From Candidatus Kaiserbacteria bacterium CG10_big_fil_rev_8_21_14_0_10_59_10 (GTDB lineage Bacteria; Patescibacteriota; Minisyncoccia; Phycocordibacterales; UBA2100), in NCBI GenBank assembly GCA_002773285.1, contig PFBM01000014.1:1-48208 (forward strand): a stretch of DNA of 48,208 nt, written 5' to 3'. The translations under genes were made by a program, and so were the position numbers. Of this stretch, positions 7,257-12,371 are shown one piece after another. The number at the start of each line of letters is the position of its first letter. Position 1 is the stretch's first letter. The notes under the pieces were generated by a model. It ran no database searches. It was not told the DNA's origin and saw only the letters and a list, made by a program, of their open reading frames with translations.

Positions 7257-7355
7257 CTATCGGCGCTTCTTTTTTGTTGCCTTCTTCTTTGTGGCCTTTC
7301 TCTTTGTGGCCTTCTTCGCGGTCTTCTTCTTTGCCGCCTTTCGCTTTTTTGCCAT
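7257..7355 (-). CDS. 32-aa Lys/Ala/Thr-rich histone-H1-like basic peptide (below the ORF-track size cutoff)
   Basis: ATG at 7355 to TAG at 7257 gives MAKKRKAAKKKTAKKATKRKATKKKATKKKRR. It has KAT(K) repeats with synonymous variation and its own terminator. Confidence 0.75.
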   Translation of the reverse strand: MAKKRKAAKKKTAKKATKRKATKKKATKKKRR

Positions 7356-7479
7356 GGTATGTGTAAATTCGTTTTCGACTAACATCGACCCGCATCTGTG
7401 CGCTTGCGTGCGCGAGCGTCAATGCGTTTTATTAATTATTGCATTCACTTGCGCGTACAAATGTTTTTTGCACATATTA

Positions 7480-7488
7480 TGTGGATAA
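7480..7488 (-). promoter_or_regulatory. Perfect DnaA-box consensus TTATCCACA
   Basis: TGTGGATAA on the + strand in a divergent intergenic region. A second copy lies at 7790-7798. Confidence 0.45.
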
Positions 7489-7789
7489 GTCGACGCAAAC
7501 AAAAAACTTTCTCGCGCGCGCAGTAAAAACATTTCATCCTATTTTCAAAATCAAAAATGTTTTTGCTCACAAACCTGAAATCTCTCAGTGTGCGAATGCA
7601 TCGCACCCCTTAGCGAGAACGCCGCGCTCGGAGAGTCGCGCGAAGTGTGGTTCATCCCACGAGCATTCTTCTACAAAGACACTGCGCCATGCGAGCGTGA
7701 TGCTTGATGAATGATTCGCGCGCATCTTGCACACAATGAATCGTACGTATCTTGCACACACTCATGCACATGGGAATTCCCCTAACCCC

Positions 7790-7798
7790 TGTGGATAA
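7790..7798 (-). promoter_or_regulatory. Perfect DnaA-box consensus abutting the left REP palindrome
   Basis: TGTGGATAA at 7790-7798. Confidence 0.45.
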
Positions 7799-7825
7799 AA
7801 CCCACGAGGTGACACCTCGTGGGTT
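7799..7825. repeat. REP-like palindrome, left of RAYT
   Basis: AACCCACGAGGTG-A-CACCTCGTGGGTT: 13-bp arms with a 1-nt centre. Confidence 0.9.
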
Positions 7826-7835
7826 AGGATGGGGT

Positions 7836-8507
7836 ATGGCTTACAGGCGCGTTCCCTTCCAAGTGGACGAGTGGTTCCATTGCTATAATCGCGGGATCGA
7901 CAAACGCACAGTGTTCGAATCAGAGGATGACTCTGAGAGATTTCTACAACTGCTGTATCTCGCAAATTCGGAGGAGAAACTACACCTTGCCGACATCTCT
8001 CTTACAACCGATGAGATTATGTGGCATGAGCGGGGCGCACCGCTTGTGTCAGTTGGTGCGTACTGTCTTATGCCAAACCACTTCCACCTAATGCTAAAGG
8101 AAATCCGCGAGAACGGCATTACCCAATTTATGCGAAAACTCGGGACTGCCTACACTATGTATTTTAACCTTCGGCATGAACGCACAGGCAACCTTTTTTT
8201 GAAACCGTTCCGTTCCCGACATGTCGACTCAGACAGGTACTTCCAGCACGTGGTCAATTACATACACTGCAATCCGGCCGAGAGAATCGACGCTGGTTGG
8301 AAGGAAGGTAGGATAAACAGTATGAACAGATTGGAGCGTGAATTGCGAGCATATCGCTATTCGAGTTTTCCTGACTACGTAGGTAACAGGCGACCGATAT
8401 CTGCGATTTTATCTGATGATGTCCGCGAGACGTATCGTCATGTTCCTGCTCGCAAAATGCTCAAAGAAGCGCACGCATACTACCGCGACCTAACCTTCGC
8501 ACTGTAG
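7836..8507 (+). mobile_element. REP-associated tyrosine transposase (RAYT, Y1 HUH family)
   Basis: Motifs FHCYNRG, AYCLMPNHFHL (HUH), YFNLRHERTGNLF, YIHCNP (catalytic Tyr) and YRYSSF. Flanked by identical palindromes. Start set at MAYRRVPF. Confidence 0.92.
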
Positions 8508-8540
8508 GCCGCGCACTCTAGCCTGCCTCACACCCACGAC

Positions 8541-8565
8541 ACCCACGAGGTGACACCTCGTGGGT
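8541..8565. repeat. REP-like palindrome, right of RAYT
   Basis: ACCCACGAGGTG-A-CACCTCGTGGGT, identical to 7800-7824. Confidence 0.9.
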
Positions 8566-8609
8566 TTAGCATAATGTTGTAGGAAAAGAACCAAGAGTAT
8601 ACAGGTAAC

Positions 8610-8837
8610 GGCGCAGTGCGGAGGACGGGTGCGAGCTCCAAAGTGAAAGTCTATGTGAGTGCCGCCGCCCTCCGCACTGTGCCCTTTTCGGTACGCGACG
8701 CGTGAAGATTCTCTTATTACAAGGTACCACGGCCACCTACAGAGGCAATTAGCGGGAGCCATAATACCGAACACCCCCCGGAGGGGGGTGCTTCGGCGAC
8801 TTTCTGCGGAGCCACAACTTTTGAAGTGGCACTCACA
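8610..8837 (-). ncRNA. Candidate structured non-coding RNA, family unknown; strand inferred from the promoter
   Basis: Lies between convergent genes. Complementary segments: 8610-8628/8665-8683, 8654-8663/8828-8837, 8645-8651/8798-8804, 8635-8639/8808-8812, plus a hairpin at 8767-8796. Confidence 0.55.
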
Positions 8838-8842
8838 CGAAC

Positions 8843-8870
8843 AGTATATGCAGCGGTGCAAAAAATGCAA
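8843..8870 (-). promoter_or_regulatory. Sigma70-type promoter pointing into the structured region
   Basis: TTGCAT (8870-8865) - N16 - TATACT (8848-8843). Predicted +1 near 8836. Confidence 0.6.
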
Positions 8871-8905
8871 AGAGGCGATCAGATCTGCCGTATGAGCGCT
8901 TCGTG

Positions 8906-11251
8906 CTACTCAAAGTTGAACGTGCCCGCGCGCATCTCCGCAATGAGCGCGCTGATATCCAGCGCGCTCGCCGGCGCGACTTCGCGCAGCGCTTCGAGCT
9001 CCTCTATCGCCTGTGCCCTCTGGCCTGCAGCATAGAGCGCAATTGCATACTGCACGCGCGCCTGCACGTCGTTTTGGTTCTGCTCTGCATATCCGCGGTA
9101 CAGACCCGCAATGCGCGCGAAGTCGCGCTTGCCTGCAAGGAGCGAGAGAATTCGCCTATCCGGCGCCTCTCCCCGCGCGACGAGCGGCGCAAGAAGCTCG
9201 TCGCCCAGCGTGTTGCGCCCTGTTTCGAACGCAGTCAGTGCATACAGTACGCGCGCCTCGCGATACGCCGGCGCCAGATTGTACGCCTCTTCGAAGTGTC
9301 GCAGTGCTTCGTTCGCCTCGTCGCGCGAGAGCGCGTTCACGCCGAGCTGAAATAGAACGGCTTGCTTGCGCGGGCTCAGCTCGCGCGCACGCTCCAAGAC
9401 GGGCTTCGCCTCGTCGTGAAATCCCGCACTGTCGAGAAATCCTCCGAAGAGCAGCAGGAACCGAAGCGTGTGCGGCATTTCCTCCATCTGCTGCCGCATT
9501 TCATTTGCGGCGCTGGCAAGGAACTCCCGCTTCACCTCTTGCGGGAAATCCGCCGCAAGCACACGCGACGCGAATTGAAGCAGCTGCTCGCGCGCTTCCT
9601 GTGTGCCGAAGGTATCGCGCTCTATCGCCTCATTGAAAAACGCGAGGTTGCTCATGATGTCCTGTTGCGGAGATATCGCGCGGATGATGGCGCGATTCGC
9701 GGCTAGCGCGTCCGCATTCACATACCACGCGACGCCCCATGCGCCCACGACGGCAAAAAGGGCGAGTATCGGCAATGCACCGCGCGAGAGCGTGTGCTTC
9801 TCAAGGAGCGGGGGCGCACCCTGGTGCGCGCGCGCCGCGATATAGGCGAGCACCGTGACGAACAACATGTAGCTCGTAATGTTGTCAAAGACGGTGAGAT
9901 TGTTGAAGAAGTAGCCGGCGAGAAGCCCCGTGAGTATGGCGCGTTCGTATGCGGCAAAGGCGGGCGAGCGCCAGAGGGCCCAGAGCGCCGCAGCGAAGAG
10001 CGCGAGGTAGCCGAGAAGACCGAATACGCCTCCGGCAATGAGCCAATCAAACACCGCATTGTGCACGCGGTCGAACCACGGCTCCTGCGCATACATGCGC
10101 GGGTCGTAGTATTTGTCGAAGACCACCGCGTAATTCTCCTGCCCCCACCCCAGCACGGGCCGCTCTTTGAACCCCTCCCACGCAATGCCCCAGTTAAGGA
10201 ATCGTGCAGTAACCGTCGTCTCGGAAAGCGAGATGGAGGCAAGACGCTGCAGCGGCTCCACCTTTTGCACCCAGGCGGCGTCCCGCGCGAACCACAGGCC
10301 TCCCGCCATGACGAGCGCGACAGCGAGCAGAACAACAATGCGCTTCAAGAGCCGCGCCCGGGGCGCCTGCACGATATACGCGAGCGCCGCCACAAGCGCT
10401 CCTACGGCGAGCCCCAGCATGGCGCCGCGCGCGAGCGTGAAGGCAAGGATGAATGTAAACAGCGCGAGCGCGAGCGCGAGCGCCACGCGCGCGAGCGCAT
10501 AGCTTCCGGAGCGCATCCACGCGTAGAGCCAAACACCCAGAGAAATGATGACGAGAACGACACTCGCGCCGCTCTCATGCGCTTGCGACACCGCGTACGC
10601 ATGCCACACGGCAAATACCTGCAGCGCCGCCGCCGCGCCAAAGAGCGCCGCGGGGTTGCCGATGCCCTTCCCCTCTATCTTCTCGCGCCCCCATACCAGC
10701 GCGGCGATAAAGATGTGGAAGAGCATGTAGACGGCAAGGTAGATGGCGTTCCCCAAAGTCGCGTCGAGGCGCACCCCGCCTTGATTGATGGTGATGAATC
10801 CCGCCAGTTGCAGCATGCCGTAGAGCCCGACGAACACCGCAACAGAGAGCGATACCTGCCAGAGCGCGTTCCACAGCCGCTCCGTGTTGAGGATAGATAC
10901 GGCAGCGAGAAAGTATGCAAAGAGATGCGCCAAAGTCACCCAGCCCTCCATCCGCTCAAAGTTGGACCAAATGCTTTTCTCCGGATACACGCCAAAAAGC
11001 GCCGCCGCACCGATGACGAGTAAGAAGAACGCGAAGGCGAGCAGTACCCAATTCCATCGCGGCCGATACTCGGGATTCACCGCGGCAAGCGCAAGCCAGG
11101 CAAAAAAGACCACCTCCGTAATGAGCCGGAACACGAAACCCTTCCCCGTGATGAACGGAAAAAAGAGCGCACTCGAGACATAGAGCACGACAAAAGGGAG
11201 CGCAAACACCCCCGCCAGGACGATATTCCGCAGCCCCCTCTCAAGCGCCAT
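8906..11251 (-). CDS. O-antigen ligase / O-oligosaccharyltransferase-like (Wzy_C) membrane protein with C-terminal TPRs
   Basis: Many TM helices. Motifs ATLGNAIYLA, ERPVLGWGQENY and FDRVHNAVFDWLIAGG. TPR-like helical repeats at the C-terminus. Start set at MALERGL. Confidence 0.88.
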   Translation of the reverse strand: MALERGLRNIVLAGVFALPFVVLYVSSALFFPFITGKGFVFRLITEVVFFAWLALAAVNPEYRPRWNWVLLAFAFFLLVIGAAALFGVYPEKSIWSNFERMEGWVTLAHLFAYFLAAVSILNTERLWNALWQVSLSVAVFVGLYGMLQLAGFITINQGGVRLDATLGNAIYLAVYMLFHIFIAALVWGREKIEGKGIGNPAALFGAAAALQVFAVWHAYAVSQAHESGASVVLVIISLGVWLYAWMRSGSYALARVALALALALFTFILAFTLARGAMLGLAVGALVAALAYIVQAPRARLLKRIVVLLAVALVMAGGLWFARDAAWVQKVEPLQRLASISLSETTVTARFLNWGIAWEGFKERPVLGWGQENYAVVFDKYYDPRMYAQEPWFDRVHNAVFDWLIAGGVFGLLGYLALFAAALWALWRSPAFAAYERAILTGLLAGYFFNNLTVFDNITSYMLFVTVLAYIAARAHQGAPPLLEKHTLSRGALPILALFAVVGAWGVAWYVNADALAANRAIIRAISPQQDIMSNLAFFNEAIERDTFGTQEAREQLLQFASRVLAADFPQEVKREFLASAANEMRQQMEEMPHTLRFLLLFGGFLDSAGFHDEAKPVLERARELSPRKQAVLFQLGVNALSRDEANEALRHFEEAYNLAPAYREARVLYALTAFETGRNTLGDELLAPLVARGEAPDRRILSLLAGKRDFARIAGLYRGYAEQNQNDVQARVQYAIALYAAGQRAQAIEELEALREVAPASALDISALIAEMRAGTFNFE

Positions 11252-11345
11252 CACCGGGATTGTATCACGCATGACGTGGTGCTTAAGATGCATCGAGGTC
11301 TCGGGGTTGTTTCCCCGTGCTCCTTTTTGTTGCGTCATGCCTCGG

Positions 11346-12371
11346 CTACTCCACGTCTTGCTCAAGAATCAACTCATCCGAGGCAATGCTGCGTAGCGAT
11401 TTCTTGCCTAGTACCGAATCTAACTTATCTGGGCCAAGGCCGGTACCCGGTCGCTTCAGTGCGATTTTCTCCCTCGTTATAACCTCGCCTTTTCTCACAT
11501 CAACCGCTGCTACGATACTCTGTCGTGCCCACTTCCGCGCCGCATCGAGCTCTGCCGCCCTTGCACGAGACGAATGTTCCATCGATGCCTCTATGTCGCG
11601 TATCTGCTGGACCATTACGACCAGCTCTTCGGGGGTGGTAGAGACCGGGCAATCAAAGGAGCGCGTGTCCGTTTTATCGAACGATTGATGTTTTTCTATC
11701 ATCGAGGCGCCCAGCGCAACGGCTGCGAGCGGTATATGCCACCCGACCGTGTGATCGGAATATCCTATGGGGTAGTCGAACATATCCTTATAACGCGTTA
11801 TCATCCGCAGGTCGCTTTTCTCCGGCGGAGTAGGATATACCGTGTTGCAGTGAAGGATTACGATCTCACGGCAACCGCCGCGTTCAAGTGCGGCGACGGA
11901 CGTACGAACCTCATCCTCCGTTTTGTGGAGACCGAAGGAAATAACGACGGGCTTCCCGCGCGATCCCACGCTCTCAAGAAACTCAAGGTTTAAGGATTCG
12001 CCTGAACCGACTTTAAAGAACGGGGCGTTAAGCTCCTTATCTAGAAAATCGAGGTCCACTTCCGTATGCGCCGTAATAAAACACTGTATGCCCCGTTTCT
12101 TGGCGTAGGTGTAGAGTTTGGCGAGTTCATCGTGACTCAGTTCTTTATATTTGAGCCGATCATACCAGTAGGGCGACACTTTCCGCGAAATGAGCACCTC
12201 GGTAGTTTGGGCTTGGAACTTAATGGCGTCACATTTGGCAATTGCAGCCGCATCTATTTGCTTCTTTGCTAACTGTACATCTCCCCAGTTGGTAAGGCCC
12301 CCCTCAGATACGATATAGACGGGTTCTCCTTCTCCCACTGCGCGTCCTGCGAGTAGAACCTTTTTTGCCAT
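11346..12371 (-). CDS. neuB: NeuB-family nonulosonic acid synthase with SAF domain
   Basis: DAIKFQ, FKVGSGE, LHCNTVYPTP, GYSDHT, IEKH, and SAF domain LKRPGTGL. Start at MAKKVLL. Confidence 0.9.
   Translation of the reverse strand: MAKKVLLAGRAVGEGEPVYIVSEGGLTNWGDVQLAKKQIDAAAIAKCDAIKFQAQTTEVLISRKVSPYWYDRLKYKELSHDELAKLYTYAKKRGIQCFITAHTEVDLDFLDKELNAPFFKVGSGESLNLEFLESVGSRGKPVVISFGLHKTEDEVRTSVAALERGGCREIVILHCNTVYPTPPEKSDLRMITRYKDMFDYPIGYSDHTVGWHIPLAAVALGASMIEKHQSFDKTDTRSFDCPVSTTPEELVVMVQQIRDIEASMEHSSRARAAELDAARKWARQSIVAAVDVRKGEVITREKIALKRPGTGLGPDKLDSVLGKKSLRSIASDELILEQDVE

Follow-up and report, generated by a model that had tools for sequence, protein, structure and literature searches.

In the RNA-IN/RNA-OUT pair of IS10, a free 5′ end attacks the loop of a hairpin and unzips its stem, and CopA/CopT is a two-step kissing pair; the RNAs of both systems are cis-encoded, fully complementary, and found on mobile elements or plasmids. 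GcvB-SroC is a pair made of an sRNA and its sponge (anti-sRNA), and OxyS-fhlA is a two-site sRNA contact. Most known sponges derive from mRNAs or tRNA spacers as by-products, and the sRNAs that they bind have many mRNA targets. Two-piece tmRNA is one structured RNA formed from two base-paired pieces, which arise by processing of a permuted precursor. To our knowledge, hardly anything has been described of RNA-based regulation in members of the candidate phyla radiation, which are uncultured and have few recognizable regulators.

The locus described here, a gap between two protein-coding genes, probably consists of two neighboring and independently transcribed small-RNA genes on the minus strand, B followed by A, which are single-copy across a class of ultra-small groundwater bacteria and whose products would base-pair and act as a two-RNA switch. 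The pair resembles RNA-IN/RNA-OUT and CopA/CopT in that a second RNA would contact a hairpin loop while a single-stranded 5′ end would invade the upper stem, excluding the intramolecular helix. Unlike those systems, A and B are separate genes, complementary in two short blocks (8 bp and 7 to 15 bp) of non-colinear order, and they are chromosomal and conserved across the class. With the sponge pairs and OxyS-fhlA they share trans-encoding, short seed-like pairing, bipartite contact, and possible titration, but both partners are dedicated, adjacent, and co-evolving genes, and no mRNA target was evident in a scan for the complement of the seed (CACTCAC occurred 7 times near crude ORF starts against 6.5 expected). 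As in two-piece tmRNA, conserved helices join the two halves, and function seems indifferent to their linkage, order, and strand; however, there is no homology, each piece has its own promoter, and a one-piece tmRNA is found elsewhere in the genome. The locus is relevant because its two dedicated small-RNA genes are strongly conserved and single-copy, and because covariation points to two alternative states of the pair. It is thus a concrete system for in vitro tests that do not depend on culture of the organism.

The window, that is, the whole 48,208-nt stretch of DNA analyzed, corresponds to contig C18 of a genome that totals 760 kb in 24 contigs and has a completeness rating of 98.95%. The gap, which a first-pass annotation had described as about 400 bp between convergent genes without a credible ORF, measures 398 bp (8508-8905) and lies between a Y1_Tnp/RAYT-type ORF on the plus strand (7752-8507) and a Wzy_C-TPR membrane-protein ORF on the minus strand (8906-11365). 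The absence of a coding sequence is borne out by comparison, as the reading frames within the gap are not conserved and 1-to-2-nt indels occur in A between close relatives. Over 261 nt, the minus strand folds with a z score of −5.1 (none of 200 shuffles was as good), compared to −3.1 for the plus strand. An inverted repeat joins 8600-8628 with 8665-8693 (79% complementarity over 8600-8693), and there are in addition a G+C-rich hairpin at 8766-8797 and a loop of the long hairpin complementary to the segment just 3′ of the promoter. Exact 11-mers of the region gave only scattered matches in the rest of the genome, chance-like by rough estimate. The four sequencing runs in which the stretch was located are all of DNA contigs, with no RNA run among them. 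The single promoter-like match in a scan was not above chance (1 found versus 1.7 expected), and the case therefore rests on the comparison with relatives, from which we infer the ends, the transcription starts, and the expression of A and B.

To evaluate the distribution of the region, we used BLASTN and covariance models. BLASTN recovered two conserved blocks, corresponding to A (8607-8686) and B (8763-8848), in 38 of 61 related genomes, i.e., the own genome, 27 of 36 genomes of its genus, and 10 of 24 belonging to other families. Two covariance models were then available for A, the first built from 28 sequences and the second from 101 aligned rows. With the first, A was detected in 104 of 151 genomes of a sample of the order, with one match per genome, and in 3 of 151 genomes of a sample of the phylum. 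The exceptions to one A per genome in the order sample were an opposite-strand echo in the own genome and matches on two contigs in one other genome. With the second model, A was detected once in each of 48 of the 151 genomes of a class sample (the two weakest matches being partial), six of them from the same order, including the own genome, and 42 from other orders. It was not found in the other 103, which does not equal absence, as the model may miss divergent forms, and the genomes in all of these samples are related to one another rather than independent observations. In the own genome, both A and B are single-copy.

A is a putative RNA of ca. 100 to 118 nt (8597-8714, minus strand, with ends estimated from the comparison) that would fold into a short leader and one long hairpin. 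The stem proposed previously between 8610-8628 and 8665-8683 proved to be real and extends to 8600-8693. RNAalifold on 28 A sequences gave 29 pairs, 15 of them with compensatory changes, and in the alignment of 101 rows, changes on both sides were found in 26 of the 29 pairs, including all 22 of the long stem. In that alignment 93.3% of the cells were paired, compared to 71.7% after shuffling and 40 to 51% when the 3′ partner was slid; these values are to be read with the provision that the 101 rows were fitted to the model, which favors the modeled stems here as in the B alignment, and that one of them is a wrong-strand row. At the tip, two short inner helices (GC/GC, then CUC/GAG plus CA/UG) lie under an apical loop of ca. 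15 nt, AUAGACUUUCACUUU (8640-8654), which contains the segment c′, GACUUUC (8645-8651), and covaries with the linker of B. Both inner helices, designated 2 and 3, were predicted and show almost no variation. They involve the segment a′, GCACUCAC (8655-8662), for which the partner would be either the 3′ strand of A itself or the 5′ end of B. With regard to the strand, several pairs of A are mostly G-U when read from the minus strand (for instance in 20 of 28 and 17 of 28 sequences) and would be A-C on the plus strand, and the covariance model R1 scores 96.1 bits on the minus strand versus 32.8 on the plus. On these grounds, A is a minus-strand RNA as judged by comparative sequence.

A candidate promoter precedes A at 8721-8748 on the minus strand, with a −35 element TTGCCT (8748-8743), a 16-nt spacer, and TGG followed by a −10 element TACCTT (8729-8721), so that the arrangement in the window reads TTGCCT-16-TGGTACCTT (8748-8721). 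By eye, the genus relatives carry TTGnCA-16-TGnTACnCT before A. Across 100 A loci, TAnnnT hexamers peak just before the gene, with 78 hexamers (26 of them with TGn) in the 0-to-5-nt bin versus 4 to 38 elsewhere. Where the gap between B and A is shorter than 10 nt, the −10 element of A overlaps the hairpin of B. A is followed by a run of at least four T residues in 33 of the 100 loci.

B is a putative RNA of about 77 nt (8760-8836, minus strand, ends again estimated by comparison) composed of a 5′ seed GUGAGUGC, a hairpin P1, a linker, and a second hairpin, P2. Its promoter (8843-8870, minus strand) is backed by the sequence, the scan, and conservation, with a −35 element TTGCAT (8870-8865), a 16-nt spacer, and a −10 element TATACT (8848-8843), rendered by the scan tool as TTTGCA-17-TATACT. 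This is the promoter that the first-pass annotation had placed on the minus strand with its +1 near 8836, and the relatives agree with it: a TAnnnT motif ends 4 to 10 nt before GUGAG in 73 of the 78 B loci, usually as TGnTAnnnT with a TTGAC-like −35 some 17 nt upstream. G1 of GUGAG is 8836, and the position of TAnnnT thus puts the +1 of B at or beside this nucleotide. The segment a, the 5′-terminal GUGAGUGC (8829-8836), is complementary to a′ in A. P1 (8811-8830) would pair 8826-8830 with 8811-8815, with changes on both sides in four of its five pairs and a loop that varies from 4 to about 50 nt. In the linker that follows, the segment c, GAAAGUC (8798-8804), has the apical loop of A as its partner. 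P2 (8766-8797) is a G+C-rich, terminator-like hairpin with changes on both sides in 12 of 14 pairs, so that the helix noted earlier at 8767-8796 turns out to be a covarying hairpin; its U tract is weak in this genome. For P1 and P2 together, 16 of 19 pairs show both-side changes, and 88.5% are paired compared to 39 to 68% when slid, in an alignment of 81 rows, three of them partial or spurious. P2 is followed by at least three T residues in 46 of 78 loci and by at least four in 22 of 78, and in the window no clear U tract follows either B or A. The covariance model R2 scores 82.4 bits at B, the sole good match in the own genome. The possibility that B is a small-protein gene or a leaderless mRNA was discarded on the short GUG frames (reading from the 5′ GUG, the median distance to a stop was 12 codons, with 15 or fewer in 43 of 76 homologues) and on the small indels in A among close relatives mentioned above.

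B is usually found near A. The model placed B next to A in 47 of 58 sources and, for a second set, in 78 of 100 A loci; a pattern search recovered it in 8 of the remaining 22, which brings the number to at least 86 of 100. In one further genome (G133), B lies ca. 735 nt from A. In other orders of the class, a B-like gene was located near A by eye in 15 of 24 loci (14 + 1), and these genes have the promoter, GUGAGUG, a linker complementary to the loop, and a terminator. In 71 of the 78 loci placed by model, B precedes A on the same strand; it is located downstream of A in 1 and is encoded on the opposite strand in 6. Same-strand genes are separated by 5 to 640 nt (median of 55). Judging from gene order, this variation shows that linkage between B and A would not be required. 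Read-through from B into A, giving a single B-A RNA, is possible in view of the prevailing tandem order (71 of 78 loci), the median spacing of 55 nt, and the short U tract of B.

These data bear directly on the question of whether the region encodes one RNA or two. The first-pass annotation had taken it as a single RNA with its own promoter, and such a molecule, of about 240 nt, would be transcribed from 8836 through P2 into A and would fold through intramolecular pseudoknots into a ribozyme-like structure or a switch. The predominance of the tandem same-strand order, with gaps down to 5 to 9 nt, is consistent with this, as are the weak U tract of B (with none after P2 in the window) and the fold of the 261 nt as a whole (z of −5.1). 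However, a −10 element (in many cases with TGn) keeps its position immediately before A, also where it coincides in part with the hairpin of B, P2 is shaped like an intrinsic terminator, and B occurs in opposite-strand (6/78), swapped (1/78), and distant arrangements. We therefore consider a single RNA unlikely. The earlier view of one RNA is not the best reading, as each half has a conserved promoter and the halves can lie on different strands, in swapped order, or up to 640 or even ca. 735 nt apart. In agreement with two RNAs forming a regulator-antagonist pair, comparative sequence points to a promoter and a terminator for each, with U tracts that are short or absent in many, and their complementarity is kept through compensatory change.

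To evaluate the contact between the two RNAs, the loop of A and the linker of B were taken from 78 cognate pairs and compared with non-cognate combinations. Cognate duplexes had a mean energy of −10.9 kcal/mol and 9.6 contiguous pairs, versus −6.0 kcal/mol and 6.5 for non-cognate ones. None of 5,000 permutations reached the cognate means, a count that is not to be read as a probability, since related genomes share changes and independence is overstated. The own B was the best or tied-best partner for 19 of the 78 A loops, with a median rank of 4. The contact spans 7 to 15 bp and is maintained through compensatory changes, from GACUUUC/GAAAGUC in the window to GACAUU/AAUGUC in many families, GAUGUUUAC/GUAAACAUC in locus L056, GGCAUUU/AAAUGCC in L067, and UACAUUUGUC/GACAAAUGUA in L126. 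Pairing of 8645-8651 with 8798-8804, one of three long-range helices suggested from the window sequence, is in this way strongly supported by covariation.

The second of these helices, suggested as 8654-8663 with 8828-8837, is recovered as 8 conserved bp between the 5′ end of B and GCACUCAC of A, with a few compensatory changes. Its positions 1 to 8 are paired in 69 to 78 of the 78 cognate pairs and position 9 in 39 of 78. There are six double-change cells, found at B1-A9 (A-U twice and C-G once), B3-A7 (A-U), B6-A4 (C-G), and B8-A2 (U-A). Mismatches occur in several loci, L061, L038, and L042 among them, and four loci have C opposite A at B6. The helix is nearly invariant overall, and its support consists of few events. 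In L158, a locus from another order, three strands have changed together, namely CCCAC in A, GGGG in the 3′ strand of A, and GUGGG at the start of B, and this triple change supports both alternative partners of a′, as far as a sequence comparison can. In L086, where a G of RNA A is replaced by an A, the intramolecular partner and position 8 of B both fit the change (GACA/GUU/B8 U). Covariation shows, at the level of sequence, that the loop of A would pair with the linker of B and GCACUCAC of A with the 5′ end of B. Since GCACUCAC also forms the inner helices of A, the latter pairing and these helices are mutually exclusive. The third helix, between 8635-8639 and 8808-8812, pairs here and in the genus but is not conserved beyond it, the segment of B being variable in other families (by reading, uncounted). 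The more general expectation, that pairing of the loop with the distant segment crosses the stem of the hairpin and involves folds that exclude one another, is borne out. RNAcofold of B with A indicated no gain (ddG of 0 to −4.9 kcal/mol), because the loop-linker contact crosses the stem of A and makes, with the 5′-end contact, a pseudoknotted two-RNA complex, while the method cannot represent the loop-linker pseudoknot.

The best reading of the comparative data would be a two-RNA switch or antagonist pair. B would start at its own strong promoter with an exposed GUGAGUGC, followed by P1, a single-stranded linker, and P2, and the tip of A would hide GCACUCAC within its two short inner helices. 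In a first step, B would dock on the loop of A through a kissing contact, and in a second, its 5′ end would displace the 3′ strand of A, UUUGGAGCUCGC (8630-8644), converting a closed A hairpin into an open A:B heterodimer. Either one RNA would titrate the other, as a regulator and its dedicated antagonist, or the heterodimer would be the active form. Such a three-way pairing would explain the near-invariance of GCACUCAC and its partners without invoking other targets. If A and B are a regulator and its antagonist, they would be a rare case in which the two are co-evolving dedicated genes; should the heterodimer be what is active, it would represent a new structured RNA composed of two pieces.

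The A:B heterodimer might also be the functional unit as such, a two-piece housekeeping RNA or RNP scaffold instead of a regulator with its antagonist. Presence as one copy per genome across the class, the near-consensus strong promoter of B, the invariant core with both contacts co-evolving, and the changes of order and strand without loss would all fit such a role. Against it, neither a protein partner nor a catalytic motif could be identified, and 103 of the 151 class-sample genomes gave no match to A (where divergent forms may be missed). The alternative closed fold of A is conserved too, including in L158, which fits a switch better than a static scaffold. We regard a housekeeping heterodimer of this kind as possible but rather doubtful. 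A broader version, in which A and B form a new bipartite structured RNA of the whole class, i.e., a double-pseudoknotted heterodimer with a conformational switch serving as a housekeeping RNP or a catalytic or sensing RNA and not as a usual regulator, is offered with low confidence.

The two-RNA switch has also to be weighed against functions in cis. The surroundings of A and B are syntenic. Of 30 loci, 23 have the Wzy_C-TPR gene and 22 have secA as a flank, and A and B are usually on the same strand as both. A position between these two genes, mostly in the same orientation, is what would be expected from a leader or attenuator acting on the downstream lysine-rich micro-gene and secA. However, among the 27 genus-level loci with a recognizable flank, A is opposite in strand to its flanks in 8 (compared to 0 of 19 order-level loci, including two duplicates), and the start of secA lies 300 to 1,200 nt beyond A. 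Moreover, a separate conserved unit lies between A and secA, formed by a TTATCCACA box, a promoter, a conserved leader, a lysine-rich micro-ORF, and a terminator, and this indicates that A and B are not a secA leader. A cis-acting leader or attenuator is thus very unlikely, and a cis-regulatory leader or riboswitch was rejected for the region on the inverted orientation in 8 of 27 genus-level loci and on this independent unit. In the micro-gene leader of some relatives, partial matches to the seed complement can be seen by eye; they are not conserved.

At the other border of the gap, the RAYT gene with its flanking REP hairpins abuts the region, and the first-pass annotation had tied the RNA to this unit. 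As both RNAs contain strong hairpins, they could in principle be REP/REPIN-like or otherwise mobile hairpins linked to RAYT, or bidirectional terminators of the convergent genes. The segment is single-copy, however, its position is syntenic across the order, a RAYT homologue occurs at 2 of the 30 syntenic loci, and A and B have conserved promoters and covary with each other, so that we find this explanation hardly credible. The REP-type hairpin at the right flank of the RAYT insertion (8541-8566) is outside the RNA genes and marks their boundary; it recurs as an identical 26-nt sequence at 7800-7825, and contig C4 carries a third copy. The RAYT gene and its REP hairpins form a local insertion unrelated to A and B. 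The proposed link, including the expected co-occurrence of homologs with RAYT genes, was not upheld (2 of 30 loci, with the RNA segment single-copy and the REP hairpin not), and a REP/REPIN identity was rejected for the same reasons.

No member of a known RNA family was recognized in the region. Rfam 15 gave no match at gathering score anywhere in the window, and a permissive scan of 8450-8950 returned four weak look-alikes (best E value of 0.045). Scanning 16 diverse homologous loci gave only sub-threshold matches over the A and B elements. The look-alikes from these scans resembled hairpins or terminators, and one of them, mir-1976 (22.3 bits against a cutoff of 71), was rejected as chance or generic architecture. 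The best and recurrent library match to B is RF01772 (rnk_pseudo), a Pseudomonas cis-leader upstream of rnk, which it resembles in having a hairpin, a linker, and an intrinsic terminator in that order. However, none of the scores (38.2, 35.1, and 17 bits) reaches the gathering score of 55, the alignment depends on the terminator and in the window runs into the promoter, and other terminator-bearing leaders match the same place. It was likewise rejected as chance or generic architecture. ARAGORN detected no tRNA or tmRNA in the window. The RNase P RNA of this genome is a full-length copy on contig C4 (74.9 bits) and its tmRNA a standard one-piece copy on C16 (146.2 bits), by which both identities were rejected. 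For 6S RNA (RF00013) there was no match in the region, nor in the genome at an E value of ≤1, and this identity was rejected as well. 6S RNA is rod-shaped, measures about 180 nt, and has a large bubble at its center; A taken alone, without B, is a hairpin of ca. 100 nt with small internal loops only. A and B are thus two families without an Rfam 15 match that current genome annotation misses, and the earlier prediction of a novel structured RNA other than tmRNA, RNase P RNA, SRP RNA, or tRNA stands, the covariance scan having given no strong match to a known family such as 6S RNA or RNase P. In the literature, we found no description of such RNAs in these bacteria.

SRP RNA deserves a separate comment. 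The models RF00169 and RF01854 gave no match in 8450-8950 at an E value of ≤10 and none in the genome at ≤1, and RF00169 was found in 0 of 61 relatives. No Ffh or FtsY was detected in the own genome (neither PF02978 nor PF00448), where tblastn with Escherichia coli Ffh gave a best E value of 0.094 and SecY, used as a positive control, was found. A genome in which neither Ffh nor FtsY is found removes SRP RNA as a candidate, and this identity was rejected on the lack of both a model match and the two proteins. Ffh, FtsY, and SRP RNA were likewise not found in the 151 sampled genomes of the phylum. The passages available from PMC8321541, PMC10768705, and PMC6744442 do not state whether SRP is present or absent in the phylum, and the SRP genes in those from PMC10768705 bear the APY09 tag within host-strain comparisons and were taken as belonging to the host. 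One might speculate that the A/B heterodimer fills the gap left by this missing machinery; the link is speculative because the A/B RNA is confined to one class.

A last point concerns the TTATCCACA boxes, which had suggested a replication origin. This was rejected, as no GC-skew turn is seen in the window. With one mismatch or none, 12 such boxes were counted versus 5.95 expected, and 3 of 100 shuffles reach 12.

A signal-recognition particle (SRP) system was not found by RNA and protein-domain searches in the Kaiserbacteria genome to which the window belongs (G000), in its relatives or in the phylum sample. In the genome itself, the search for SRP RNA gave no match, the domain search recovered neither the Ffh M domain nor an SRP54-type GTPase, and the Escherichia coli Ffh protein, used as a tblastn query, reached a best E value of only 0.094. 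SecY and SecA are both encoded in this genome. None of the 61 related genomes compared had a match to the SRP RNA family RF00169, and the matches to PF00448 among them were P-loop fragments only. Across the 151 genomes of the phylum sample, PF02978 was found in none, and no PF00448 match reached an E value of 1e-10 or lower. The parts of the literature covered by our search are silent on whether these bacteria have an SRP system.

Next to the inferred small-RNA gene A (RNA A, minus strand), positions 7752 to 8566 of the window hold a RAYT-type Y1 transposase gene with its REP hairpins. Identical 26-nt hairpins are located on both sides of the gene (7800 to 7825 and 8541 to 8566), and a third copy is found on another contig of the same genome (C4, 19203 to 19229). 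Because the left hairpin falls within the long RAYT open reading frame (ORF) as annotated, the true start of the gene is probably later than the annotated one. Immediately upstream of this ORF, a 25-nt unit is repeated in direct tandem (7710 to 7759, 84% identical).

A stand-alone conserved unit is situated between RNA A and secA, on the minus strand of the window (7257 to 7500). It combines a promoter of the extended −10 type with a conserved leader that contains GCGGGTCGA, followed 3′ by a micro-ORF of 25 to 80 amino acids rich in Lys and Arg and then by a terminator. In the window the micro-ORF (7257 to 7355, minus strand) starts with MAKKRK and has no Pfam match. The unit also carries a perfect TTATCCACA box (7480 to 7488), which we take to be the DnaA-box consensus, and a second copy of TTATCCACA adjoins the left REP hairpin (7790 to 7798). 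The unit was present in the window and in each of the 19 loci of relatives displayed.

Some relatives of the same genus (loci L018, L023 and L031) have a second long hairpin downstream of RNA A, which is absent from the window. These hairpins share the 3′ module of RNA A, have a 5′ arm complementary to this A-type module and bear an apical insert of ca. 90 nt with two small hairpins. At two other loci (L025 and L039), a partial inverted copy of the 3′ module lies beside RNA A. Finally, in the RNA A locus L158, from genome G383, a run of N occurs together with a duplicated flank, an arrangement suggestive of a scaffold gap or of masked sequence; the reading of this locus is based on the intact copy only.
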